Virus record (IMG/VR): IMGVR_UViG_3300032038_000034
Location: 1-64,000 of that record
From: a virus
Lineage: Duplodnaviria > Caudoviricetes
Direction: 5' to 3' (one strand)
Length of the DNA: 64,000 nucleotides
Part shown: positions 25,316 to 60,894 of the stretch, piece after piece
How positions within the stretch are numbered: the first letter of the stretch is position 1
Layout: each line of letters begins with the position of its first letter
Program-made: the position numbers and the translations under genes
Notes under the pieces: generated by a model
The model's database searches: none
Told to the model about the DNA's origin: nothing
Seen by the model: the letters and a program-made list of their open reading frames with translations, nothing else

Positions 25316-25389
25316 TGGTCTTCCCGCAACGACTCGAACGCTGACCAAGAGGGTTAGAGCCTCCTGTGCTACCATTACACCACGGGACG
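25316..25389 (-). tRNA. Amber suppressor tRNA (anticodon CUA), tRNA-Gln-like body
   Basis: CGTCCCG TG GTGT AATGGT AGCAC A GGAGG CT-CTA-AC CCTCT TGGT CAGCG TTCGAGT CGTTG CGGGAAG A CCA. Confidence 0.93.
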
Positions 25390-39377: not shown

Positions 39378-39714
39378 GGTCTTTAGACGTCGAGAACCTC
39401 CGAGTCAGTGACGTTAAAGTAATCGAAAAAGATGAGAGGCAGCGACCATTGCGTGTCCAGGAGCCTAGAGATCAAGTAGATACTATATATATGTGAATAG
39501 ACACATACGTAGAGAGCCCCCGAGCCATTACGTAAAGACCGCCACCGTCCTCACGGTGTAATAATATGAGGCCATTAGATCAAGTTTGCGATGTGCGAAC
39601 CATGAGTCGGTGCTCCAGTCTGAGATGGTATCAAAAGATTGACACTGCGTTGTATATCAAGAATGCGAACACATTCTATTGAGAACCCGCGAGTCAGTGA
39701 TAGGGCAATGTGTT
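39378..39714 (+). ncRNA. Candidate multi-hairpin RNA displaying repeated GARC-N3/4-GAGYC loops
   Basis: Motif at 39394, 39514, 39597, 39683; three copies have clear closing stems. Confidence 0.65.
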
Positions 39715-39859: not shown

Positions 39860-40090
39860 GTAAGAATCTTAGCGTGTGTGAGGTAAACTGTTGTGACACG
39901 GGTTCGACCCCCGTACGCTCCACTAACAATAATAAAATTGGGGCGTAATTGGTATAGAACGCAGTGGAAGTAAACACATTAAGCGCTTTGATATAAAAAT
40001 TAACTGGCAATATTAACATTGCAGACTACACGGGCCTCCAGGAGGCAGCGTGAAGTCGGTGTACAGGCTACCTAAGTGCCTGTGAAACGA
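39860..40090 (+). ncRNA. ssrA: Circularly permuted (two-piece) tmRNA
   Basis: Acceptor piece ends GACACGGGTTCGACCCCCGTACGCTCC-A (39922) BEFORE the 5' piece GGGGCGT (39940); G3:U70 pair; tag ORF 40006-40053 GNINIADYTGLQEAA*. Outer ends approximate. Confidence 0.85.
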
Positions 40091-41726: not shown

Positions 41727-42290
41727 ATGAACCCACGTATTACCCCCGAGGAAGTTGGGATGATCAAAAGAGCTCAAGCAGGTGATGAATCTGCATTTAA
41801 TGCGCTTTTCTATAGGTACAAAGGATTTGTGGAGAATCTCCTCTTTCACTATCTTAAAGATATGGATGAGGCCAAAGACGTTGCAAATATCGTCTTTTTG
41901 AAAGTGCATCAAAAACTCTCTAAATTCACAGCATATGACTCCTTTGGAGGATGGCTGAGAATTTTAACTAATCGTACTGCTATTGACTATTTGCGTTCAC
42001 AAGAAAACAAAAGAGTGGCACCTGATGCGAAAGAAGAAAGACTAACTTCAGACGTTCAGGGTTCTACTGAAGATGACCTAGTCAACCATCTGACGTATAA
42101 AGAACTGCTACCTGAGTTCAACAAGTTGCCAGAGATCACTCGTAAGATCTTCACAATGTTCTATGTGAATAATAATACCATAGAAGAGATTAGTAATTCG
42201 TTCAATCCGAAAATCCCAACAGGAACTATTAAGTCAACGTTGTCGAGAACTAGGAAAAAGTTAAAACAACGCTTAAAATTAAAAGTATGA
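41727..42290 (+). CDS. ECF-type sigma-70 family RNA polymerase sigma factor
   Basis: AQAGDESAFNALFYRY, EAKDVANIVFLKV, SFGGWLRILTNRTAIDYLR, IPTGTIKSTLSRTRKKLK. Confidence 0.93.
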   Translation: MNPRITPEEVGMIKRAQAGDESAFNALFYRYKGFVENLLFHYLKDMDEAKDVANIVFLKVHQKLSKFTAYDSFGGWLRILTNRTAIDYLRSQENKRVAPDAKEERLTSDVQGSTEDDLVNHLTYKELLPEFNKLPEITRKIFTMFYVNNNTIEEISNSFNPKIPTGTIKSTLSRTRKKLKQRLKLKV

Positions 42291-44659: not shown

Positions 44660-46790
44660 CACTCCGGTGTGGGGGATGCATGAGGATTTGTGTGTCCCCC
44701 GGCCAGATTGGCAACACGTCAGAGCTATGTAAACGGTCTCATTAGCCGGGCTCGAAATAGTACAACTTGATCTGAGAATATGTTAGCCTGCTCAACAGGT
44801 GAGAAATGCAAAAGGTAGGATGAAATGCTGTAAGTTTATGCGTACTACATAACTGAATCGCTTACAGTAAGAGGACAGAGCGTTTGTATCAAGTCCTTTG
44901 GCCCTTGAGAACCGACTGGTGAAGGATAACCATAAAAACGCGTAAGACCCCTAGGGGCAAAATGATGCCGTATTCGACACACTAACTGATGATACATAAG
45001 GTTAGCATAACGATACAGGAGTTGCAACATTAAGTTTGACACCAACCACTTAATGATGTATCAATAAGCTGTAGCTTAGTCCTTCATCCGGGCTCTTCGG
45101 AGGTCCAACCGGATGTGTAAGGGAGTGAAAATTATCTGAGTATATTCGCCTAGCAGAAGGTGTGACTGTCTGCGCCGTACCGTAACTACGGTCCTTGGAG
45201 AAATCCTTGCCGTTCGATTCGTGCACAACTCCGTTGAAGGGGTGCCAGGGATGGGGTACAGAGGAAAATATGATGAAGATGACCGCCAGGCCTTGGTCGT
45301 TCATGCGGTATATAAAAGTAGAATGACTGCCAGTGGATGCAACACTTGAAGTTCTTGTGGTTCTGGAGCCCAAGGATGCGCGACTGAAGCCCGCGAAGAA
45401 AGGCTATTGTAAATGATAACACGCATTGGTAAGCGAATGTGATGTTTGAAATAGGAAATGCAATTAGATGACAACTTGACAGTCAGACGTTTGTTTTGGG
45501 TGGTCGATTCGAAGCCTATACATTCCAGTATAGAGGGAGATCGCTTCCTTCGAAAGTAAGATGATAGTTAGATGACGAACTGTATGCGATATACCGTCAT
45601 ACTTTATCGGGAGAAGATTCTAACGAAGATAATACGTAGTAGAAAACAAAAGAGATATTAACATGTTTAACAAAAATTGATGTTCCCAGCTGGTGGAAGG
45701 AATAAAGACAACTTTGTATGTATGCGCCATCACGCCTGGAGTTCGAGTGCCAACCGTTCCTGAGAAGCAAGTAGCAGAATGAGATACAACGATCGCTATC
45801 TAAGCTTGAGTCGCCAAAAGAGCAATCGAATAGGTAGCCGTGGGTAGCGACTTGAAGTAGGACAGCAAATCCTTTGTAGTCCATAAAGCAATATACATTT
45901 AATCGATGGGCAGCTTATCGTGAAGTTATTAGCCACCTCCCTGTCTCGGAGGGGTAAAGAAAATGAGTAATTAGTCTGTCGAAAGACAGTTCGCTGATGA
46001 AAAGGATTCGGCAAATATGAATCTTTAAGTGGGTGACAAGAAGCGATGTATGAGGTGAAATCCCTCCAGTATTCGTGCACTATAAACAAATGAGGCAAGC
46101 ACTTGCCAAGAGAAGAAAACAAGCCGTAGAGTTATTTGGTTCTGGAGCCTAGACTGTCCGATAACGAAGCACGTCCCGTGCAATGACACACGCACGTCAT
46201 GATGAAAAGGGAAAAGGTAAACAGTAGCGTACGCCTTAAAGTATGCGACATCAGAGAAAATCTGTGGTTAAGTAACAATCACTGTGTAATAACTCGTAGT
46301 AGCTTGGGAAATATACTTACAGAGAAATTACGCAATCTTTTGAGGGGTCCTATGAGCATTAGTTGGCCTAGCCAAAATTTTGCCAACGGACAAAAAGACG
46401 TCGGAACTAGTACGCAAGGAACGTATTCGATGCATGTTTTACGAAAAATAGACATAACTACATATGGTTCTAGTAAACTTAGTGATTGAATTCACATATT
46501 CAGCATTTAAAGCTTTAGCACCTGTTGATGATGATGGGCATGGATGATTCTACCGTTGAATCCCCGTTACACGAGTTGAGCTTCATTTTAAGGAATATAG
46601 AAGTGTAACTAGTCGTCAATAAAAACGTGCTTCCCATTAGCACAGCAACTGAAAACATAATAGGTTGAACAAACCGCATCCAGTAGAACCTCCGAGTCGG
46701 ATGTAAAACTATTTTAGAGGTCACGGACACACCCAGAAGTGTCCATAGTTTTTAATCTTATCGTTGGTGGATCAACCACGATATCAAACA
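44660..46790 (+). ncRNA. 2.1-kb non-coding, hairpin-rich region with internal duplication (large RNA candidate or pair)
   Basis: No credible ORF; repeats GGWGAAATCC..ATTCGTGCAC (45197/46054) and TGGTTCTGGAGCC (45358/46137). Confidence 0.55.
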
Positions 46791-46802: not shown

Positions 46803-47477
46803 ATGAGTAACGAAAAAACAATTGATGTAAACATCAAAACCGTATTGGCCGACAACCGTCAGGCCGCAAGTTTAATTGGCGCGCTGATTGGTAAGGCTTA
46901 CGCCAAAGTAGAAAGCCGCGACTGCTGGCAGGGTGGTAAAGAAGGTTTCGAGAACGATAAAGCCAAGGCAACAGCTCCTGGTGCAGCAGGTCTCATTCTC
47001 AATCGCTCTCCTCGCAAGTTCATGTTGAAGATTCAGGACATCCTCGGCGCCCAGATGTACGTACAGCCTCTGACCAAGCAGGTCGGCGTTGTAGTAAATC
47101 TGGACAGTTCCAATGGTTCCTACGACATGTTCTTCCCGCTGGACGGCTCTAACCCCACTGTCGCTGAGAAGCCTATGGCAGAAGCCATTTCTGATGCTCT
47201 GAAGGGTGAAGGTCAGAACTTCTTCCTGGAGCCCTCTAAGGTTGTCGCTGTTGTCAACGAGGGTAACCGCGCTGAGGTCAAGAACATTGACACTCTGATC
47301 GGTGCTCTGAACAAGATGAAGCAGAACATCATCACGACAATCAACGAGAACGAGAAGAAGGCTATCGAGATCGATAAGGAGTGGGCCACTTCTAAGGTTA
47401 ATGGTGTTGACATCAAGGATGTCGTAGCCAGCGCATCTAGTGCTGTACTCAACGTTCATACTGCTACTGAGGAATAG
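46803..47477 (+). CDS. Abundant hypothetical protein; ends in TAG
   Basis: 224 aa, biased codons; TAG GTA TGA. Confidence 0.85.
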   Translation: MSNEKTIDVNIKTVLADNRQAASLIGALIGKAYAKVESRDCWQGGKEGFENDKAKATAPGAAGLILNRSPRKFMLKIQDILGAQMYVQPLTKQVGVVVNLDSSNGSYDMFFPLDGSNPTVAEKPMAEAISDALKGEGQNFFLEPSKVVAVVNEGNRAEVKNIDTLIGALNKMKQNIITTINENEKKAIEIDKEWATSKVNGVDIKDVVASASSAVLNVHTATEE

Positions 47478-50929: not shown

Positions 50930-51003
50930 GAGTGAGTTAGCTCAGTTGGTAGAGCAGCGAGTTAAGTCGGCTATGTCGCAGGTTCGAGCCCTGCACTCAC
51001 TCC
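50930..51003 (+). ncRNA. tRNA-like RNA with defective anticodon arm
   Basis: GAGTGAGT/ACTCACTC stem; normal D and T arms; anticodon arm AGCGA-GTTAAG-TCGGCT (6-nt loop, bulge). Confidence 0.65.
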
Positions 51004-51030
51004 TAGTATTAACTAAAGAACCTATGAGTC

Positions 51031-52923
51031 ATGTGGATACGAAATCGAATAGTCTACGTATACGACGTAGAGATATTCCCTAATTGTTTCCACTGTTGCT
51101 GTAAAGATACAGAGACCGGTAGACTATACAAATTTGAAATATCAGAAAGAAGGAATCAGCTAGAAGATCTAGTTGATTTCTTTTATTATACACACGAAGA
51201 TTATTTCAAATTGTTTTGTGGTTACAATAATCATCACTATGATGATGTAATCATAAACTATATGATAGACTACAGGAAAAAACTAGCAAGTTTACCTTAC
51301 TGGAAAATTTGTAATTCTTTGTTTAATCTATCTACTACGATAGTGGAAGACGAAGATGGGAGCCGTGAGAAGCTCAAACGATGGAAGTATGCACATTGCT
51401 TCGAATCGATGGACTTGCTCACAATGCAGTTTAGTCAAAAGCTTAGAGTGGGTTTGAAAACCATGCAGGTTACAATGCACTATAAGAATGTCTATGAGTA
51501 CGAAGGAGACTTCGATCAACCTTTGCCTGTAGATAAAATTGACGAAATGATAGCATACAACATAAACGATGTTGAGTCGACTACAGAGTTATTAAACCGC
51601 TTGAAAGAGCAAATCGATTTGAGGTTGTTTATCGAGAAAGAACACGGCATAGATTGTCTTTCTATGGACAGTGTTAAGATGGCAGAGACCTTCCTGTTAG
51701 AAGAATATTCTAAGAAGTCAGGTATTCCTAAAAATGTTATAAAGGAAATGCGTTCTCCTATGGATTATATTCCGTTGAAGGATGTTATTCTGCCATTTAT
51801 AAAATACAAAAATCCAAAGTTACAAGACGTTCTTGAGGATATGAAGAAACAGGTCGTATACTCTAAAGAGCGCAAAGGCTATGAGAAGAAGTTTGTTCTC
51901 TCAAATGTGGTGTATTCAGTAGGTGTAGGTGGAATCCATTCCATCCACACTCCAAAGATATTCCTCCCTAAAGATGACGAGCACATTGGACACGCCGATG
52001 TTACGTCCATGTATCCGTCCTTATTGATTAAATATCAATTTGGCCCTCGTCACTTAGGAAAACTTTTTTGCGATATATTCGAAGGTATTTACTATGAACG
52101 AATAGAAGCAAAACGTACTGGTCAAAAGATTAAGAATCTGTTTCTAAAGATCGTGCTTAATTCTCCTACAGGAAAGATGCAACAGGAGGTAAGTTGGATG
52201 TACGATCCGTTCAATGTTTTTAAGATTAGGATAAACGGTCAACTAATTCTTTTAATGCTCGTAGACAGGCTTTTAGAGCTCGGCTGTGAAATTATACAGG
52301 TGAACACTGACGGCGTTGTCTACAGGGCTAAAAACAGCCTTAAAGATGGAATTGAGAGAGCCATTAAAGAGGTAGAACAGATCACTCAACTTGGTTTTGA
52401 AGTGGATGAGTACGAAGCATTCTATCAATATGCCATCAATGACTACTTTGGGGTCATGAAGGGATATTCAGAGTCGAAAGACCCAGATCTGATAGAGAGA
52501 AAAGGTATGTTTATAACTAAAACAAAGCTTGGGAAGGGATTAGCACCTGTAATCATTCCCAAAGCTGTTATAGAATACTTTGTCAACAAGATACCGGTGA
52601 CAGAAACTATTGAGAAGGATAGAGATATCCGTGATTTCTTAATGTCTCAAGCTGTAGATAAGAAATTTAAAGTTGTACACGGTGAAAAACCTATACAACG
52701 TATCAATAGATTTTATGCAAGCACAGATGGTCCTTATCTCTATAAAGTAGATCCAAATGGAGACAGAGATAAAACCAATATGTTAACTAAATCAGGAGTA
52801 ACAATCCTGAATAAATTTGATGATACCCCGATAGAAGATCGCAAGATTAACTATCGTTACTATATCAGTGAAGCCAAAAAAGTGATAGCAGACTTTACTG
52901 AACAACAGCTATCGTTATTTTAG
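51031..52923 (+). CDS. polB: DNA polymerase, family B
   Basis: ExoI YDVE, ExoII GYNNHHYD, ExoIII YNINDV, motif A DVTSMYPS, motif B KIVLNSPTG, motif C NTDG; C-terminal QQLSLF; ends TAG TAA. Confidence 0.95.
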   Translation: MWIRNRIVYVYDVEIFPNCFHCCCKDTETGRLYKFEISERRNQLEDLVDFFYYTHEDYFKLFCGYNNHHYDDVIINYMIDYRKKLASLPYWKICNSLFNLSTTIVEDEDGSREKLKRWKYAHCFESMDLLTMQFSQKLRVGLKTMQVTMHYKNVYEYEGDFDQPLPVDKIDEMIAYNINDVESTTELLNRLKEQIDLRLFIEKEHGIDCLSMDSVKMAETFLLEEYSKKSGIPKNVIKEMRSPMDYIPLKDVILPFIKYKNPKLQDVLEDMKKQVVYSKERKGYEKKFVLSNVVYSVGVGGIHSIHTPKIFLPKDDEHIGHADVTSMYPSLLIKYQFGPRHLGKLFCDIFEGIYYERIEAKRTGQKIKNLFLKIVLNSPTGKMQQEVSWMYDPFNVFKIRINGQLILLMLVDRLLELGCEIIQVNTDGVVYRAKNSLKDGIERAIKEVEQITQLGFEVDEYEAFYQYAINDYFGVMKGYSESKDPDLIERKGMFITKTKLGKGLAPVIIPKAVIEYFVNKIPVTETIEKDRDIRDFLMSQAVDKKFKVVHGEKPIQRINRFYASTDGPYLYKVDPNGDRDKTNMLTKSGVTILNKFDDTPIEDRKINYRYYISEAKKVIADFTEQQLSLF

Positions 52924-52953
52924 TAACCAACTTAGAGCCCCCGAGTCAATAGT

Positions 52954-53520
52954 ATGATTATTGAAGTAAATACAAGACTTCTGGATGCAAATCCAGAACT
53001 GAATTCAAATCAATTATTGTTCCTAAGTATTGTATTGGATAAGAATCAGCCAAAATATCAAGACGTCCAAAAGGTCATCAACCTTGTCAGTGATGACGAT
53101 ATACAGTACTTAGTCGACCAACATTTGGTCACCTCGATAGAGAGAGGTGATTCAGTTACATATGAGCCAACGGAAGAGTTAAAGCAAAGTATAGCACCTA
53201 AGAAGGACTATTTTGACCTCTTCTACGATATGTATCCCGTGTATGTTGTTCGAGCAGATGGCAGTAAATCTTATTTGCGTGCGAACGTAAACAAGTGTCG
53301 TCATTTCTTTAACCTCAAATGTGGTCGTAGCTCAGCTATGGCAGAACATATCATCAAGTGTCTGGATTATGAAATATCTAAACGGATGCGTGAAGGTAGC
53401 CTTAGTTATATGATGACTATGTGGAATTGGTTAACACGTAGTCAATGGGAGGCCATTGAAGATGAAATGAACGACAAGAAGCAAACACCAGTAAACTCTT
53501 ATGGAACAGAACTTATCTAA
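52954..53520 (+). CDS. Replication-associated protein (putative initiator/helicase loader)
   Basis: Between PolB and DnaB; FDLFYDMYP...WNWLTRSQWE pattern. Confidence 0.6.
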   Translation: MIIEVNTRLLDANPELNSNQLLFLSIVLDKNQPKYQDVQKVINLVSDDDIQYLVDQHLVTSIERGDSVTYEPTEELKQSIAPKKDYFDLFYDMYPVYVVRADGSKSYLRANVNKCRHFFNLKCGRSSAMAEHIIKCLDYEISKRMREGSLSYMMTMWNWLTRSQWEAIEDEMNDKKQTPVNSYGTELI

Positions 53521-54424
53521 CATACGTCCAATGAGCGTTGTTGCTCAAGAAGCAATCAACTATATCAAAGGACGAAGAGAGCATAACATTGTTTCTCTTA
53601 AAACTAGATGGGAAAAGTTTAATAAGCAGTGTATGGGAGGTATAGAACCAAATACCGTTTACACCATAGCTGGTATATCTGGAACTGGTAAGTCGAGCTG
53701 GGTTAATAGTTTGACAACCGATATAATTGATTTGAATCCAACTGAAGACATAGTCATTCTAAACTTCTCGTTAGAGATGGTTGGATTTAGGCAAGTAGGA
53801 AGGACGCTTTCGAGTAAACTTCGTAAAACGACTTCTGACTTGTATAGTTCTGAAAAGGACCTGGATGACGAAACGTTTAAACGTGTTATTGCAGTATCTA
53901 ATCAGCTGAAGGAATATCCTATATATTTTGTGGATAACCCAAGCACTCCTTCAGAGGTAGAAAAAACTATAAAGAATTTCTATGAAACGTATGTAAAGGG
54001 TTCTAAGAAACACTTTATTATCGTATACGATCACACGTTGCTGACTAAACAAGTAGGTTCTGTAATAGAGACTACTTCGGAACTTGAGCGAGTATTTATA
54101 CAAGCTAAAAAGTATCCGATGACATCAGTGATTCAGATTGCACAAATGAATAGAAATATCGAGTCTTCAGAAAGGATAAATAACCCATCGAGTCATTACC
54201 CGATGCGAAGTGATTTATCGTCATCTGATGCGATGTTTCAGGCAAGTGATTACGTGCTTGTCATGCATAGACCAGAGATATTGAACATTCAAGAGTACGG
54301 ACCAAACCGTTTACCTACACAAAATAAGGTTTACATGCATATGTTGAAAAACAGAGACGCAGGCAAACCTTGTATTCTTGAATTCGAGAACGATTTGATG
54401 TACAATAACCTGATCGAACGTTAA
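53501..54424 (+). CDS. dnaB: DnaB-family replicative helicase
   Basis: AGISGTGKS, FSLEM, IVYDH, IAQMNR, SDLSSSDAMFQASD, KNRDA. Confidence 0.92.
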   Translation: MEQNLSNIRPMSVVAQEAINYIKGRREHNIVSLKTRWEKFNKQCMGGIEPNTVYTIAGISGTGKSSWVNSLTTDIIDLNPTEDIVILNFSLEMVGFRQVGRTLSSKLRKTTSDLYSSEKDLDDETFKRVIAVSNQLKEYPIYFVDNPSTPSEVEKTIKNFYETYVKGSKKHFIIVYDHTLLTKQVGSVIETTSELERVFIQAKKYPMTSVIQIAQMNRNIESSERINNPSSHYPMRSDLSSSDAMFQASDYVLVMHRPEILNIQEYGPNRLPTQNKVYMHMLKNRDAGKPCILEFENDLMYNNLIER

Positions 54425-54465
54425 TGCTCAGATGACAAGTATTAACAATTAAAATAGGCTGATTT

Positions 54466-54933
54466 ATGATTACGACATATACTTTTGGTAAGAAGAATAA
54501 TAATAGTTACAATCCCTTTCACACTAGTAGCAAACCCAACTATTCTAAGATTCTTGATGATATCATTATTGCTGATGTAATTAAGAAGAATAGTTATCTG
54601 TTCAATAAGACGGACAATACGGCAGCTATCGACACCACTCTCCTGGGTGCATCGTACGATTCTGATTTCGATAAGGCTGTTAAGTTCCTTGCCAATTACA
54701 AGAAGCCGAAGAAGAATTATATTCTCCCCTTCGCGCTGAATAAAATGTATACTCTTTCTGACGGTACTCCCATTATCTTCTACGATGATGAGATTCAGAT
54801 TGGTTTTGATACGTATAGCTACGCTGATTTCAGCGACATTTCGTTCATTAACGCTCTGACACCTAAGAAAAAGAAGATTATTATTGATATCTATACGTTT
54901 GGCAACGCTAATATCAATATTAATATTCTTTAA
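54466..54933 (+). CDS. Hypothetical protein
   Basis: 155 aa track ORF. Confidence 0.75.
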   Translation: MITTYTFGKKNNNSYNPFHTSSKPNYSKILDDIIIADVIKKNSYLFNKTDNTAAIDTTLLGASYDSDFDKAVKFLANYKKPKKNYILPFALNKMYTLSDGTPIIFYDDEIQIGFDTYSYADFSDISFINALTPKKKKIIIDIYTFGNANININIL

Positions 54934-54954
54934 TCATTAGAACTATAAGTCAAT

Positions 54955-55701
54955 ATGATAACATTACCTACTCAAAAAGTTCCTGCAACTTCAACTAATC
55001 CGCAGTATTTAATCTTATACGGTCTTCCTAAGAGCGGTAAGACGAGTGCTGTAGCTCAGTTGGAGAATAATCTCATCATAGACCTTGAAGGCGGATCTAA
55101 GTTTATTGATGCGCTAGCTGTTCAGGCACGTACCATCAATGATCTTGGAGAGATTGCACAAGCCATTCGAGCTAAGAACGATGAGGTAGGACATAATTTT
55201 TATAGACACATTACTATCGACAATGCTACACGTCTCGAAGATATTTGTATGAGCTACGCGTGCACACTTTACAGACAGACCGAATTAGGAAAGAACTGGA
55301 AAGGAAACGATGTTACAACACTTGCACGAGGAGCAGGTTATAAGTATTTAAGAGATGCAGTAAAGAAGGTAATTGATATGTTCAAGGACCTTTGTGACGA
55401 ATTTATTCTGATAGGACACGTTAAAGATTCTATTACTGATAAGGATGGACAAGAAGTCAATGCTAGAGAAATCGACCTTGTTGGAAAACTCGGACGAATT
55501 GTATGCGGACTCGCAGATGCGGTCGGCTACGTTTATCGAAAAGAAAATGAGACTCATGTCTCGTTTAAAGGCGGCGATGGAGACTCCGTCCTCGAAGCAA
55601 GAGCGAAACATCTTGCGGGAAAAGATATCATCATTTCTACAGGAAATGAAGACGGATCAATAACAACCTATTGGGATCGTGTTTACAAACCAGAAGTATA
55701 A
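54955..55701 (+). CDS. AAA_24/Sak4-like ATPase
   Basis: LILYGLPKSGKT, IIDLEGG, ITID, ILIGH, ADAVGYVYR. Confidence 0.85.
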   Translation: MITLPTQKVPATSTNPQYLILYGLPKSGKTSAVAQLENNLIIDLEGGSKFIDALAVQARTINDLGEIAQAIRAKNDEVGHNFYRHITIDNATRLEDICMSYACTLYRQTELGKNWKGNDVTTLARGAGYKYLRDAVKKVIDMFKDLCDEFILIGHVKDSITDKDGQEVNAREIDLVGKLGRIVCGLADAVGYVYRKENETHVSFKGGDGDSVLEARAKHLAGKDIIISTGNEDGSITTYWDRVYKPEV

Positions 55702-55718
55702 CTCAGAGTTTAAGAATT

Positions 55719-56327
55719 ATGTATAGTACAAAAACAGCAACAACAAATAACCAGGAGTTTAATAGCTCCTATATGCCTGTAGGCATCAACGAGAATGTAA
55801 CCTTGAAAGAGGTTAATGTAAACAAAACACCTAATGGTCGTGACTTCTTGGAGATAATCTTTGAGAATGAGAACGGTCAGACAGCAACTATGACAGAGTG
55901 GAAGAACGAAAAGAATCAGTGGATTGCTACCGACGAAGATTTGCAGCGTCGTGACGATGCACAGTTTGGTCGTATTCTGCAGGTTATAGATGCAGCAAAC
56001 GGTAACCATACCGACTTCGAAGGAAGTTCGTTTGTGGAGATGATTAACTGGGTAAAAGCTCAGCTTGAACCAGCTACAAATCCTGCAAACATGCGTCAAG
56101 GTATGCGTTTGAAGGTTGTTTACGACAAGAAGGGTTATACGAAAGTTAGCTCTCTTGGTACTTTTGTTGAACCTATGAGTGTAGAAGAGTCTCAGATTAA
56201 GCTTTGGAAGAATGATCTTCTTGAGCGTCCTGTTGTAGCAGATGTTGAACCTGCTGCAGATCCGCTCGGTGTAACTACCGCTCCGGTGACTGAGACTTCA
56301 ACAGGTGCTGACGACCTGCCTTTTTGA
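55719..56327 (+). CDS. Single-stranded DNA-binding protein (putative)
   Basis: Follows the Sak4-like gene; ends GADDLPF; true ATG at 55719. Confidence 0.75.
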   Translation: MYSTKTATTNNQEFNSSYMPVGINENVTLKEVNVNKTPNGRDFLEIIFENENGQTATMTEWKNEKNQWIATDEDLQRRDDAQFGRILQVIDAANGNHTDFEGSSFVEMINWVKAQLEPATNPANMRQGMRLKVVYDKKGYTKVSSLGTFVEPMSVEESQIKLWKNDLLERPVVADVEPAADPLGVTTAPVTETSTGADDLPF

Positions 56328-56424
56328 TTCGTGGTATTATAAACCACGAAAAATGTATATCGGAAACGGTTTACTAGAGCAAATGGTCAGTGGTGGAGGT
56401 TGACTTCTGGTCAACCCTTGGTTA

Positions 56425-56522
56425 AGTATAGATGCTAAAGCGGCCGAGTACCCTAGAGGGAAAGCATTTGACGTCTAAGGCGTGCGGTGCACACAGAGGT
56501 TCGAGTCCTCTCTATACTACAA
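56425..56522 (+). ncRNA. tRNA-like RNA (acceptor + T arm, non-canonical interior)
   Basis: AGTATAG/CTATACT-A-CAA; AGAGG-TTCGAGT-CCTCT. Confidence 0.55.
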
Positions 56523-56540
56523 TAATTTAAATTAAGTACT

Positions 56541-56819
56541 ATGATATCAGAAAAGTTAAGAAGATGTTCTAATTGTGGAAGGTTCATGAATGAAGGTTAT
56601 CTTCTTGGGGTTTATTACGCCTGTAGTGATAAGTGTAGAAATAAAATTTACAGAAAACATAATGGCGTAAAAACAGACGAAGAGGCTAAAATAATGTACC
56701 TGAAAGACTGTTATATGCTTGAAGATAAGGACATCGAAGGACTTACTTCTGAGCAAATATCAGAGAAATACAAAGATTGTGAAATATCAGATGATGTATT
56801 TTGGACACAGTGGTGGTAA
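56541..56819 (+). CDS. Small Zn-finger-like protein
   Basis: CSNC...CSDKC. Confidence 0.7.
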   Translation: MISEKLRRCSNCGRFMNEGYLLGVYYACSDKCRNKIYRKHNGVKTDEEAKIMYLKDCYMLEDKDIEGLTSEQISEKYKDCEISDDVFWTQWW

Positions 56820-56948
56820 ATAATTATGAAGAAAAAAGATTATCACAAACCAGGATATTGGAAAGACTGGTATTGGAACAAAGGCGGACGAGAAAAAGTC
56901 CAAGCAACACGTTATATTGCAGAATATGAACGTGAAAAAAGGAAAAAT

Positions 56949-57020
56949 GGTTGTGAGGCTTAAAAGTAGGAATAAAGCTAGTGCGCGCGCTAAGTGGTTC
57001 GAATCCACCCACAACTTCAA
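56949..57020 (+). ncRNA. tRNA-like RNA with a 4-nt loop in place of the anticodon
   Basis: GGTTGTG/CACAACT, GCTT/AAGC, TAGTG-CGCG-CGCTA, GTGG-TTCGAAT-CCAC. Confidence 0.6.
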
Positions 57021-57040
57021 TACAAAAGAGCTTATAAGCC

Positions 57041-58015
57041 ATGTATAGTACAAAAACAGCTATTACAATGAGTCTTAGAGACTTGTTGGATAAAGTGGAT
57101 GACTATACTATCTATTCTTATTATCTTGGAGCATTTAAGCCCGGAAAACTTATGAATAGTCCTTTACGAAGTGATGATAGAATGCCGTCTTTTGCTATAT
57201 TTCCTACAAAAGATGGTGCACTCCTATTCAAAGACCACGGTACTGGAATAGCGGGAAACGCATTGAAGTTCTTAAAGCTTTATAGAGACATTCAAACAAG
57301 AGAAGAACTTGAACGAGAATTGTTGAGGATTGTACGAAAAGTAAATCCAAACTTAAACGTTGTTACTAAGACTAATGGTCATTTGGTAACATCGGGATTA
57401 CCAGCAGATATCGGAATAGTTCGTCAACCATTTACAGAAGTTGATAAACAGTATTGGAAGCAATTCCATATATCTATTGATACGTTGAAGAAATTCAATG
57501 TGTTTAGCATTAAATATTTTCTTTGTAATAGAGTCGTCAGAGGAACCTACAAAGAAACTAGTCCTATGTATGCATATAAGGTTTATGATCGATTTAAGAT
57601 TTATAGACCTTTAGCTTCAAAGTATACTAAATGGCGTACCAATCTGACAAATAGGCACGTTCAGGGATTAGCCGAGTTGCCCGAAGCAGGCGGAGATCTA
57701 CTTATAATCACAAAGTCTTTAAAAGATGTTATGTGTTTATATGAGATGGGTTTTAATGCTATATCGCCTTCTAGTGAGACTACATTTATCCCAGAAGATA
57801 TATTGAAGTCTCTACGTAGTAAGTGGAAGAAGATTGTTATACTGTTCGATCGAGATGCAACGGGGATGAAAAAAGCTCGAGAGTATAGTAAACAATATAA
57901 GATGGATGCTATATTTGTCCATAAGAAGTTTAAATCGAAAGATATTTCAGACGCAGTAAAAAACAATAATTTTAACACGGTCAAAGATTGGCTGTATAAA
58001 ACGTTGAACATATGA
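57041..58015 (+). CDS. dnaG: DNA primase (crAss DnaG/TOPRIM type)
   Basis: SPLRSDDRMPSF, FKDHG, LIITKSLKDVM, LFDRDATG, KDISD. Confidence 0.88.
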   Translation: MYSTKTAITMSLRDLLDKVDDYTIYSYYLGAFKPGKLMNSPLRSDDRMPSFAIFPTKDGALLFKDHGTGIAGNALKFLKLYRDIQTREELERELLRIVRKVNPNLNVVTKTNGHLVTSGLPADIGIVRQPFTEVDKQYWKQFHISIDTLKKFNVFSIKYFLCNRVVRGTYKETSPMYAYKVYDRFKIYRPLASKYTKWRTNLTNRHVQGLAELPEAGGDLLIITKSLKDVMCLYEMGFNAISPSSETTFIPEDILKSLRSKWKKIVILFDRDATGMKKAREYSKQYKMDAIFVHKKFKSKDISDAVKNNNFNTVKDWLYKTLNI

Positions 58016-58266
58016 TAGAGACATTGATCCTCGGCATAGTGATTGGTATCGTAGGTACTATTGCTGGAGCCGCATATGCAGCATATAAGTGGAGTAAAAA
58101 CCCATATGTGCTGAAAAAGTTTAATAGTGGTTATAGTGTACTTGCTTGCGATATTGGTTTCGAAGGAGATCCGAATGGCTACATTGGATTGAGAAAGAAC
58201 AATAAAATAATCGCAGGCATTAAATACAACGATAACGGAGTTACAGATATCGTATATGATATCTAA
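58012..58266 (+). CDS. Small membrane protein
   Basis: N-terminal TM helix. Confidence 0.65.
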   Translation: MIETLILGIVIGIVGTIAGAAYAAYKWSKNPYVLKKFNSGYSVLACDIGFEGDPNGYIGLRKNNKIIAGIKYNDNGVTDIVYDI

Positions 58267-58651
58267 ATCTAAAAGCAGAGTTAAGAATGCGACAGCAGTC
58301 GATAAGTATGGAATCCATTTCAGGAGCAAACTCGAACTCTATACTTATGAAGCTTTTATGGATGCAGGGATACCTGTAAAATATGAGCCAAAGCATTTTA
58401 CTCTGTTACCTAAGTTCGAGTATCTTGGAGAGAAAATACGTCCTATTACATATCTTCCAGACTTTATAGGCAGAGGATTTGTAGTAGAATGTAAAGGTCT
58501 TATGGGAGATTCGTTTCCTCTAAGATACAAACTCTTCAAGTATTATTTAAAGCGTCATCATTCCAAGATGCGCTGCTACCTGGTGAGAAATCATAAACAG
58601 GTAGATGAAATGATCCAAGAACTAAAAAGTCAGAGACAAGATGGAAAATAA
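58256..58651 (+). CDS. PD-(D/E)xK endonuclease (T7 endonuclease I/DUF1064-like)
   Basis: FRSKLE, YLPDF, VVECKG. Confidence 0.85.
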   Translation: MISKSKSRVKNATAVDKYGIHFRSKLELYTYEAFMDAGIPVKYEPKHFTLLPKFEYLGEKIRPITYLPDFIGRGFVVECKGLMGDSFPLRYKLFKYYLKRHHSKMRCYLVRNHKQVDEMIQELKSQRQDGK

Positions 58652-59411
58652 ATTTTCGTTTATAAAAAACGGTGACAAGATTATGCCAGTGCCTTCGGGT
58701 ATTAATTACTCATTAAAGGCTGGTAAAGTTTATGAACTTCACAATACACCAATGGATGAGCCATGTTTATCTGAAATAGACTCGTTTATTTTCCCTGAGG
58801 ACTATTATCTTAGTGACTCAGATGAGAAGTTTATGAACAAGATTGTTACTACATACAGAAAGACTGATAAACTTACCACAGGTGTATTGTTTAGTGGTCT
58901 TAAAGGTAGCGGTAAGACTCTTATGGCTAAAGCAACAGCTATGAGATCTAACCTTCCCATCATTGTAATTAGCGGTTCTGTACGAGCAAATGACATAGAA
59001 TCATTCTTTTCACAAGTAAGTGATGACGTATGTATCATTATGGATGAACTTGACAAAAACTGGTATCTGCCAGCATTGTTAGGATTCTTCGATGGTGTTA
59101 AACCTACGTGTAAAAAGTTGATTCTTTGCACTGCAAACGACGAACAAGATATCAATAAGTACTTAAATGATCGTTGCTCTCGTATACGTTATAAGCGTAC
59201 ATTTAAGAGTATCGATAAGAATGTAGCTAAAACTGTATTGTTGAAGTATTTCGATACAGAAGAGGCCGCAGATGGTGCTGCTGAGTTTTGTTGTAGTGCA
59301 ATGGGTGTAGTATCGTACGATAATGTTGTTATCTTCGGAGAAGAACATCAAAATAACCCTAATGAATCTTTTGATGATATACTTAAAGATCTTAACATTG
59401 CACACAAATGA
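58641..59411 (+). CDS. AAA+ ATPase
   Basis: GLKGSGKT, IIMDELDK, CTAN, RCSRIRY. Confidence 0.85.
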   Translation: MENKFSFIKNGDKIMPVPSGINYSLKAGKVYELHNTPMDEPCLSEIDSFIFPEDYYLSDSDEKFMNKIVTTYRKTDKLTTGVLFSGLKGSGKTLMAKATAMRSNLPIIVISGSVRANDIESFFSQVSDDVCIIMDELDKNWYLPALLGFFDGVKPTCKKLILCTANDEQDINKYLNDRCSRIRYKRTFKSIDKNVAKTVLLKYFDTEEAADGAAEFCCSAMGVVSYDNVVIFGEEHQNNPNESFDDILKDLNIAHK

Positions 59412-60403
59412 TGGACATATCAGTTCCTTATTACGAAGATAAAACTAGAATATCCAATTCGAACATAGGCTGGTTCCTAAACAAGGGGCCAGCCTTTTTA
59501 CATAAGATGCTAACAGAAGATGTTCCTGAAGAAAAGAATCCAGTACTCGAAAGAGGAACGATGATTCATGAATATATTCTGCAACCTGAAGAGTTCCGAA
59601 AAGACTATGTGATCTGGGACAAAAGTAGGCCTACTTCTGCACAGCAGGAGAAGTTCTGTCAGGCACTTGCATCTTCACTAGAAATAGAGCCAAATAGAGC
59701 CATTCTAGACGCTTATAAACAAGCATATAGTACAGCAGGAAAGTCAGAAGACAAAATGCTATCAGAAGGCCTTAAAATAGCCTCTACGTTGAAGGATTAT
59801 ATTGACTTCCTGAAAGAAAATGATGGAAGGATTATGATCTCCCATTGGGATTATCAGATGCTTGAGAAAATCAAGCATAATATACGCAATCATAAACTTG
59901 CTTGGAACATAATAGATGCACCATTAAGGGCAACTGAATTATGTGATTACGAAGCACACCACGAATTCCATATAAATTGGGAGTGGGAAATGCAAGTAGC
60001 ATGCAAGTCTCTATTAGACGGTCTTACTCTTGATTTTAAGAATAAGAAAGCTATTATCTATGACTTAAAGACTACAGCCAAGCTGTGGCACTTTGAGGAT
60101 AGTATAGAGATGTATGATTACTGTAGACAGCTTGCATATTATACAATGGCTGTTAAATGGTATCTCAAGAACGAATGTAACGAAAACACAGATGATTGGA
60201 CATTTGAATATTATATCATTGGAATCGACACTACTGGATCGTATGAAATACGTGTATTCAGGATTGAAGAGTTCATGGTGCAAAGCCGCAACTATGTCAT
60301 ACAGGACGCGTTGACGGATATTGCTTGGCACCAAACCAATGATAAGTGGGAACATAGTAGAAGTTATTATGAAGGCGATGGCTCAGAGTCATTGAACCTA
60401 TGA
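59408..60403 (+). CDS. PD-(D/E)xK exonuclease (RecE/exonuclease VIII-like)
   Basis: ISNS, GTMIHEYILQPE, CKSLLD, IYDLKTT, YCRQLAYY. Confidence 0.85.
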   Translation: MMDISVPYYEDKTRISNSNIGWFLNKGPAFLHKMLTEDVPEEKNPVLERGTMIHEYILQPEEFRKDYVIWDKSRPTSAQQEKFCQALASSLEIEPNRAILDAYKQAYSTAGKSEDKMLSEGLKIASTLKDYIDFLKENDGRIMISHWDYQMLEKIKHNIRNHKLAWNIIDAPLRATELCDYEAHHEFHINWEWEMQVACKSLLDGLTLDFKNKKAIIYDLKTTAKLWHFEDSIEMYDYCRQLAYYTMAVKWYLKNECNENTDDWTFEYYIIGIDTTGSYEIRVFRIEEFMVQSRNYVIQDALTDIAWHQTNDKWEHSRSYYEGDGSESLNL

Positions 60404-60894
60404 GTACACAGATGAAACTAATAATCCCCCTTCTTGATAAAAATATCACGAAGGAGGATTTAAGTAGTAAAGCAGGATTTGTAGATGCATATATATTTGA
60501 TAAAAACAGACCTGCAATAGACAATTGTATATTTTTAATGTACGATATGTCAAAAACAACAGCTGAAACCGGAAAGCGAGAACACAATTTCGCAAAATGT
60601 ACAAATATTCACAGCATTAAAGTAGAATATATTGGCGGCAAACCATTTAAAATTTTTGCTTTTAAAATAATTGGCAAAGATGTAAAGGATTTGTTAAACG
60701 GTTATAAGCCAAAACAGTATAACAATGTAGTTCGTATATTATCGTTCTGGAGAGGTTATGATGATGATGTCAATAAAACAATGTTGATAAATAAACCAGA
60801 ACGAATTAGTCGTGACTGGAAGACAATTCCAGAATACGACTACCGCCCATCGCCACAGATGGGTTTTGGAATAAATAAAGGCGAGGCTCTGTAA
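60400..60894 (+). CDS. Hypothetical protein (start may be 60412)
   Basis: 164 aa; last gene of the rightward block. Confidence 0.75.
   Translation: MSTQMKLIIPLLDKNITKEDLSSKAGFVDAYIFDKNRPAIDNCIFLMYDMSKTTAETGKREHNFAKCTNIHSIKVEYIGGKPFKIFAFKIIGKDVKDLLNGYKPKQYNNVVRILSFWRGYDDDVNKTMLINKPERISRDWKTIPEYDYRPSPQMGFGINKGEAL

Follow-up and report, generated by a model that had tools for sequence, protein, structure and literature searches.

The first 64 kb of a crAss-like phage genome from the rumen (positions 1 to 64,000 of IMG/VR record IMGVR_UViG_3300032038_000034, here called the window; the whole genome is 102,772 bp) carry a recurrent 12-15 nt mini-hairpin, with the consensus (A)G[A]RYY-N2-4-R[A]RYC, at the starts of replication and recombination genes. 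The motif is real and occurs far above chance, its pairing is conserved across orthologous sites, and its good copies are confined to one strand and one region of the genome. The best explanation we can offer, to which we give a probability of about 45%, is that one factor acting in trans, probably a dimer, reads the hairpin in RNA and would thereby control translation initiation. The original prediction, made from the letters of the window and its open reading frames (ORFs) alone, had proposed a set of translational operators for a single regulator. One strand-specific element does stand at the replication and recombination starts; the element also has copies away from starts, and no regulator was found among the early proteins we scanned.

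Structure and conservation of the mini-hairpin

Counted from G1, which an A usually precedes, the hairpin pairs G1 with C13, R3 with Y12, Y4 with R11 and Y5 with R9, leaves A2 and A10 unpaired, and closes on a loop of 2-5 nt. Its helix is made of two GANNC-like strands and is nearly two-fold symmetric. Orthologous upstream regions from about 40 relatives were aligned with MAFFT without structure information. At the site before the gene starting at 52954, for which 41 orthologues were aligned, 98.4% of cells are paired: pair 1-13 is GC in 29, UA in 9 and AU in 2, pair 3-12 is AU in 38 and GU in 2, and pair 4-11 is CG in 38 and UA in 3. Sliding the 3' partners by 1-3 columns lowers pairing there to 6-43%. 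The site before the family-B DNA polymerase gene (polB; protein, PolB) behaves in the same way, with 98.3% of cells paired (1-13 GC 40; 3-12 AU 33, GC 6; 4-11 CG 26, UA 10) and 1-64% in the slid control. Of 46 distinct 13-nt motif strings, 43 have C-G or U-A at pair 5-9. Compensatory changes are thus seen at pairs 1-13, 3-12 and 4-11 across orthologous sites; the relatives are phylogenetically clustered, so the number of independent events is modest.

Variants of the motif change in both halves, as in GAATC/GAATC, GTATC/GTATC, GAGCC/GAGCC and a swapped form, GAGTC...GAACC. A direct-repeat model with two half-sites fits the first three and fails on TAACC...GAGTA and GAACC...GAGTC, whereas the hairpin fits all. 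Mimicry of a K-turn, an anticodon loop or a T-loop, and a partial likeness to helix 45 of 16S rRNA, were dropped by eye, as their registers misfit. The pairing register is shifted from that of a DNA palindrome, which suggests a folded single strand rather than a double-stranded DNA operator. Taken alone, the mini-hairpin is predicted to be marginally stable, and the start regions have no other structure. Because so weak a helix would not fold stably alone, a trans-acting partner is probably required.

The hairpin had been predicted to form from flanks that pair across the start codon. The conserved pairs lie inside the motif, and it is within the motif and not in its flanks that, as judged from the alignments, the conserved structure sits. 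The flank pairings ATCAT/ATGAT, ATACA/TGTAT and TTTAGTAA/TTATTGAA (the last with two G-U pairs) do exist in part. Outer stems were rejected as a general structure, as those of the start-codon copies are no better than those of shuffled flanks. The exception is the 52954 site, where motif and AUG together lie within a 12-bp stem of A-U and G-U pairs (z = -1.6, with 12 of 200 shuffles as good).

Abundance, strand and place

Across the whole 102,772-bp genome, a regular expression with one pairing constraint matches 14 times on the + strand and twice on the - strand; 200 second-order Markov simulations gave a mean of 2.7 matches and a maximum of 8. The covariance model (R1) returns 12 matches at E<=1, all on the + strand, all between 39.4 and 59.7 kb and none in the late regions. 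In 80 related loci around polB, 143 matches on the + strand and a single one on the - strand lie no more than 25 nt upstream of an ORF start; the distance from motif to ATG among these 143 is 0-14 nt. Twenty-four long related loci hold 113 covariance-model matches on the + strand and none on the other, figures that show strand and place and not independent discovery, since the seeds of the model were drawn from those same loci. In five complete relatives the copies fall on the strand of the early genes and within a single block of some 20 kb, and a reversed-pattern control in these five gave 0-3 matches per strand.

Copies at the starts of replication genes

The six predicted motif strings were located where they had been placed, all on the coding strand; every gene and copy described in this and the next section is on the + strand. 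The hairpin before polB (start 51031), A-GAACC-TAT-GAGTC at 51017..51030 (G1 at 51018), abuts the ATG. It is the best model match of the genome at 23.3 bits and lies at distance 0 from the ATG in most relatives. The 52954 gene encodes 188 aa, and its counterpart in cr4_1 is annotated as ScpB-like; its copy at 52934..52947 (G1 at 52935) ends 6 nt before the ATG and has a G-U at pair 3-12. Before the gene of the Sak4-like ATPase (start 54955) stands a 12-nt form, GAACTATAAGTC, at 54939..54951 (G1 at 54940), 3 nt from the ATG and conserved in relatives. The primase gene (start 57041; Toprim domain) is abutted by A-GAGCT-TAT-AAGCC at 57027..57040 (G1 at 57028; 21.0 bits), likewise conserved, and the relative L022 carries GAGCC-CAT-GAGCC at the same spot.

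Two start-proximal copies fall within the 3' ends of preceding ORFs. That of the AAA ATPase (start 58641) lies at 58618..58631 (G1 at 58619; 22.3 bits), 9 nt before the ATG, and overlaps the end of the ORF for a DUF1064/resolvase-like protein (start 58256). Relatives that bear the motif retain this hairpin despite differing overlapped codons, and a set of relatives that we call group 2 have lost it and retained the overlapped protein sequence EELK. For the 60400 gene the motif is present as predicted; the string placed at 60394 contains a G-A mismatch, and the better register is 60386-60398, where the swapped GAGTC-ATT-GAACC (GAGTCATTGAACC) forms all four pairs 1 nt before the ATG. This hairpin falls in the 3' end of the ORF for a PD-(D/E)XK exonuclease (start 59408). 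ATG 60400 overlaps the exonuclease stop and is a conserved start (M-S-T/H...) in relatives; the hairpin is kept in motif-bearing relatives, and group 2 has non-pairing codons instead.

The weaker variant predicted before SSB (start 55719) exists as a degenerate copy at 55705..55718 with wobble pairs only, which the covariance model misses at E<=10. Relatives (L004, L008, L010, L014, L019 and others) have canonical copies there, 12-19 nt before the ATG. The prediction had also turned on presence at orthologous starts, and the motif does recur at the orthologous starts of polB, the 52954 gene, the ATPase, SSB, primase and the AAA ATPase. Several relatives have the AUG within the hairpin loop, as would be expected of an element that acts on initiation: the AUG of the ATPase occupies positions 7-9 in L022, L030, L034 and L045, and L075-L077 and L080 carry a canonical GAACC-TAT-GAGTC at the 60400-type gene with the AUG in the loop, again at positions 7-9.

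Copies away from start codons

Start codons account for only part of the copies: at least seven more lie elsewhere. Four of them (39394, 39514, 39597 and 39683) form a tandem array at 39394..39695, in non-coding sequence upstream of a permuted transfer-messenger RNA (tmRNA). Two of the four have strong outer stems, and a tandem array stands at the equivalent place in the five complete relatives. The tmRNA match itself, directly 3' of the array at 39874-40053 (+), scores 53.7 bits with RF04321, above the gathering score.

The 3' end of a gene for an ECF-type sigma factor contains a copy at 42223..42235; the next ATG follows 51 nt later. Relatives have an identical motif here, with a flanking stem that switches from CAAC/GTTG to CAGT/ACTG. 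The sigma factor (41727-42290, +; Pfam Sigma70_r2 1.4e-11, r4_2 4.6e-08) is present in almost all relatives at 49-83% identity, and a gene upstream of the replication genes in cr4_1 is annotated 'sigma-W factor'.

A large region without ORFs has the copy at 46686 at its 3' end; the gene at 46803 starts about 115 nt further on. Together with its outer stem of 5-6 bp (GCATCC/GGATGT) the copy occupies 46678..46704. In its orthologues the outer helix is at least 5 bp long in 14 of 14 cases and is built from at least seven different sequences, among them CATCC/GGATG, CGCTC/GAGCG, TCCAC/GTGGA and CGTTC/GAACG, with internal G-U pairs. On this comparison, compensatory change preserves the outer helices of the 46686-type copy; the G-U pairs in these helices mildly favour a + sense RNA. 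The remaining copy, GAGCC-AAATA-GAGCC at 59687..59701 (16.8 bits; flanks CTAGAA/TTCTAG), is inside the exonuclease ORF. It is nucleotide-invariant in the 11 relatives compared, bar the free third base of one Pro codon, and the neighbouring codons vary synonymously across the same 11. The non-coding copies are richer in G+C than the start-codon copies and have real outer stems.

Distribution among relatives

The PolB of this phage is 78% identical to those of the uncultured phages cr272_1 and cr273_1 and 62% identical to that of a Bohxovirus. Taxonomy was consulted for two related records, cr4_1 and Bohxovirus, and both belong to Crassvirales, Suoliviridae. Orthologous sites show position-specific conservation down to 62% PolB identity. 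The covariance model finds the motif in the Bohxovirus and gives nothing above background in crAss001, phi14:2 and cr4_1; only a subclade of crAss-like phages carries the element, and the motif could serve as a marker for that subclade of the Suoliviridae. Group 2 (for example L037, L053-L055 and L058) keeps all of the core genes and lacks most copies. At the copies inside ORFs, group 2 keeps the protein sequence and loses the pairing, and the motif-bearing phages keep the pairing by codon choice. A permissive Rfam scan of the whole window (E<=1) returned only tRNAs, the tmRNA and two chance-level matches elsewhere, and we found no description of the motif in the literature on crAss-like phages.

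A candidate site for a trans-acting regulator of initiation

Under the explanation we favour, one trans-acting factor would clamp the weak mini-helix. Because that helix is nearly two-fold symmetric, the factor would most likely be a homodimeric protein, encoded by the phage or by its host. On the replication mRNAs its site is placed anywhere from inside the AUG to about 20 nt upstream and so falls within the footprint of an initiating ribosome, a position from which occupancy could set initiation; repression is the likelier sign of such regulation. Joint control would extend to polB, the pair of the ScpB-like gene and the DnaB-like helicase (start 53501, +), the Sak4-like ATPase, SSB, the primase group and the AAA/exonuclease group. 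The non-coding copies may be pre-formed, stronger sites that compete for the same factor or store it. Because at least seven copies lie off start codons, the term translational operator can describe at most part of the story.

It is tempting to extend this explanation to the subclade as a whole (Suoliviridae around Bohxovirus, cr272 and cr130). These phages might share a hitherto unknown post-transcriptional regulon in which a dimeric factor reads a symmetric mini-helix with two flipped adenines and coordinates translation of the replisome, with decoy RNAs by the tmRNA that buffer the factor. We regard this fuller scheme as possible and rather doubtful. CrAss-like phages are among the most abundant gut viruses, and the post-transcriptional timing of their genes is barely known. 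The single model so far studied, phi14:2, yielded neither a promoter nor a regulatory motif for the early (replication) genes (bioRxiv 10.1101/2020.03.07.982082). The element marks nearly every replication unit and recurs in non-coding RNAs, which makes it suitable as bait for a binder and makes the proposed regulon testable. If the factor is a new RNA-binding protein for a symmetric double-bulge helix, the two would constitute a new protein-RNA pair and a possible tool.

Several observations weigh against a single factor that acts on initiation. About half of all copies lie away from start codons. Two genes, g54466 (start 54466, +) and g56541, start independently without the motif, and two overlapping-ORF starts carry it; because the first two lack it, the motif is not a simple mark of every initiation site. 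When about 50 early proteins encoded on the + strand (27.4-60.9 kb, early genes only) were scanned against Pfam and PHROG, no RNA-binding domain came up, and in the Pfam scan of these proteins there were no RegA, CsrA or Levivirus-type coat domains. A comparison of gene presence and absence with the motif gave no gene that tracks it, the core genes being shared with the motif-poor group 2. Inner-pair G-U and A-C combinations number two and one, too few to prove RNA over single-stranded DNA of the + strand. Finally, one random-primed RNA library has contigs that start at two motif sites (51033 and 52939), a weak hint that speaks for two of the alternatives discussed below. A search of the ESM Atlas with the 54466 protein gave no usable match.

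Alternative explanations

The hairpin could act as RNA punctuation, either as an endoribonuclease site or as a protective element at 5' or 3' ends, that divides long early transcripts into units (mRNAs, the tmRNA/tRNA cluster and a large non-coding RNA). Copies do flank non-coding RNAs as well (the 39.4-kb array, 46686 and 42223), and, besides the two contig starts, contigs from three studies end at 55689-55695, just before the SSB leader, which is again a weak hint. A contig from another RNA library bridges the polB site, however, and contig ends are weak evidence in general: the public runs are kept as contigs only, from which true 5' ends, strand and level are unreadable. Moreover, a tRNA or tRNA-like element some 15-25 nt upstream of polB and primase already offers a point for RNase P or Z, cleavage within those hairpins that hold the AUG would disrupt the start codon, and the helix is far shorter than RNase III substrates. 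We consider punctuation unlikely. It is distinctly improbable, in our judgement, that the hairpin is a positive translation signal which, alone or together with a phage factor, attracts ribosomes to the replication mRNAs and stands in, for this class of genes, for a ribosome-binding site. The putative host phylum scarcely uses Shine-Dalgarno pairing, the hairpin is placed immediately upstream of start codons as a ribosome-binding site would be, and the presence of a different motif, TTATCAAA-ATG, at the starts of another class of early genes suggests that leaders are class-specific. Spacing to the AUG, however, varies from overlap to about 20 nt, copies also occur in non-coding RNA and inside an ORF, and the close group 2 relatives express the same genes without the hairpin.

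A signal at the level of DNA would be either a single-stranded hairpin promoter for a virion RNA polymerase, as in N4, or a compact ECF sigma promoter. ECF promoters have about 16-17 nt between their GAAC (-35) and (C)GTC (-10) elements. An ECF-type sigma factor is among the phage's genes and both words, GAAC and GTC, occur in the motif, but there they are only 5-6 nt apart. The hairpin also abuts or overlaps the ATGs of polB, primase and other genes, which leaves no room for a downstream start site; the original prediction had already argued that the GAAC-GTCA spacing is too short for a -35/-10 promoter, and we find the motif both too compact and too near the ATGs for one. A search for ECF-like promoters upstream of the late genes found nothing obvious. 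For the virion polymerase there is the precedent of phi14:2, where the replication genes belong to the early class and are transcribed by a virion polymerase that acts on single-stranded DNA and for which no promoter motif was found (bioRxiv 10.1101/2020.03.07.982082). The two contig starts at motif sites would fit as well. Set against this are the outer stems of the non-coding copies, which covary with G-U pairs, so that the upstream sequence is part of the folded strand, and the number of sites, at least 12 per genome with several inside ORFs. A DNA-level signal is, on balance, very improbable. That the element has no function, as a small repeat spread by duplication or a chance product of A+T-rich leaders, is scarcely credible: it is short and some instances are degenerate (55705, 60394), but position-specific conservation, compensatory changes, absolute strand bias and synonymous-site constraint all speak against it.

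Other leader elements and genome context

Six other early genes (34898, 37702, 38840, 42777, 48996 and 49186, all +) have a second motif, (A)TTATCAAA, 0-3 nt ahead of their ATGs. It is conserved in group 2, and cr4_1, where the hairpin is absent, has a near-identical ATTATCAA; this motif may mark a different class of leader. A conserved AGTATTAAC-like element stands about 26-29 nt before several ATGs (51005-51013 and 54438-54446 here; polB, g54466 and g49196 in relatives), TAGTA precedes the hairpins of polB and the 52954 gene by 8 nt, and the 54466 gene has its own conserved leader word, GGCTGA. All three are possible promoter or leader elements. The tRNA or tRNA-like elements (acceptor and T arm) that precede polB and primase are found at 50931-51003, ~56960-57015 and ~56380-56520. 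Those upstream of polB keep their position in relatives (L001-L080) and differ widely in sequence.

SSB (55719-55738) and primase (57041-57060) open with the same 20 nucleotides, encoding the peptide MYSTKTA. The feature that the two starts share is probably the peptide, because its codons vary synonymously in relatives; AYST recurs within the exonuclease about 40 nt after the internal hairpin. In four RNA-library runs the summed contig depth over SSB (55598-56261) is several-fold above that of its neighbours, a depth that cannot rank genes.

The late genes (window 1-27400 and genome 61000-102772, - strand) are interrupted by in-frame TAG codons, and readthrough of these yields ORFs of 5457, 2444, 2319 and 1442 aa. 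An amber-suppressor tRNA with anticodon CTA lies at 25316-25389, and the + strand early genes need no recoding. Diverged paralogous ORFs of 502 aa (588-2096) and 478 aa (genome 101271-102707), both on the - strand, stand at the two ends of the record and may reflect a terminal duplication rather than an assembly overlap.

Comparison with known systems

The N4 promoters for virion RNA polymerase are also small hairpins with a triloop, and they are few and near one genome end, whereas at least 12 sites are spread here over 20 kb, several at an AUG or in ORFs. ECF sigma promoters share the words GAAC and GTC; their spacing is different, and the motif here ends at -1 of the polB and primase ATGs. 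The RNase III sites of T7 resemble the hairpin in being structured, conserved and present in several copies, which break up an early polycistronic region shortly before its gene starts. Each is a duplex of about 20 bp interrupted by an internal loop and is cleaved by the RNase III of the host, whereas the inner helix here is 4 bp and the outer helices are 0-6 bp (12 bp of A-U/G-U at one site), so that no extended duplex of the T7 type is present.

The autogenous operators of T4 gp43 and gp32 offer a closer parallel, in that replication proteins are controlled at their own translation starts by RNA structure, as may be the case here. Those sites are gene-specific and bound by the gene's own product; here one motif is common to at least six units. 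In the RegA system of T4, one factor governs many early and replication mRNAs from a site over or beside the AUG, and five to seven sites in this genome lie 0-9 nt from ATGs. RegA sites are unstructured and A/U-rich, however, unlike a covarying mini-hairpin with copies in non-coding RNA, and a RegA-family protein was absent from the early proteins scanned.

CsrA/RsmA, with CsrB/RsmZ, resembles the present case in having sites both at initiation regions and in a non-coding RNA with tandem stem-loop copies, and in its dimeric binder, if the factor proposed here is indeed a dimer. The consensus G-A-R-Y-Y...R-A-R-Y-C lacks the GGA core, no CsrA homologue was seen among the phage early proteins scanned, and titration here is putative. 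The coat protein operators of MS2, PP7 and Qbeta are small hairpins with an unpaired adenine that contain or abut the start of a replication gene and are read by a dimer. The likeness is one of resemblance only: these phages have a single site per single-stranded RNA genome, whereas this double-stranded DNA phage has hairpins with two unpaired adenines and another sequence, and a Levivirus-type coat protein was not found among the proteins scanned. Membership of the RegA, Csr/Rsm and coat/operator systems thus fails in each case on at least one defining feature. What appears to be new, as far as sequence comparison can tell, is a shared RNA operator-like element; its logic would be a known one, resembling that of RegA, of Csr/Rsm and of the coat-protein/operator systems.

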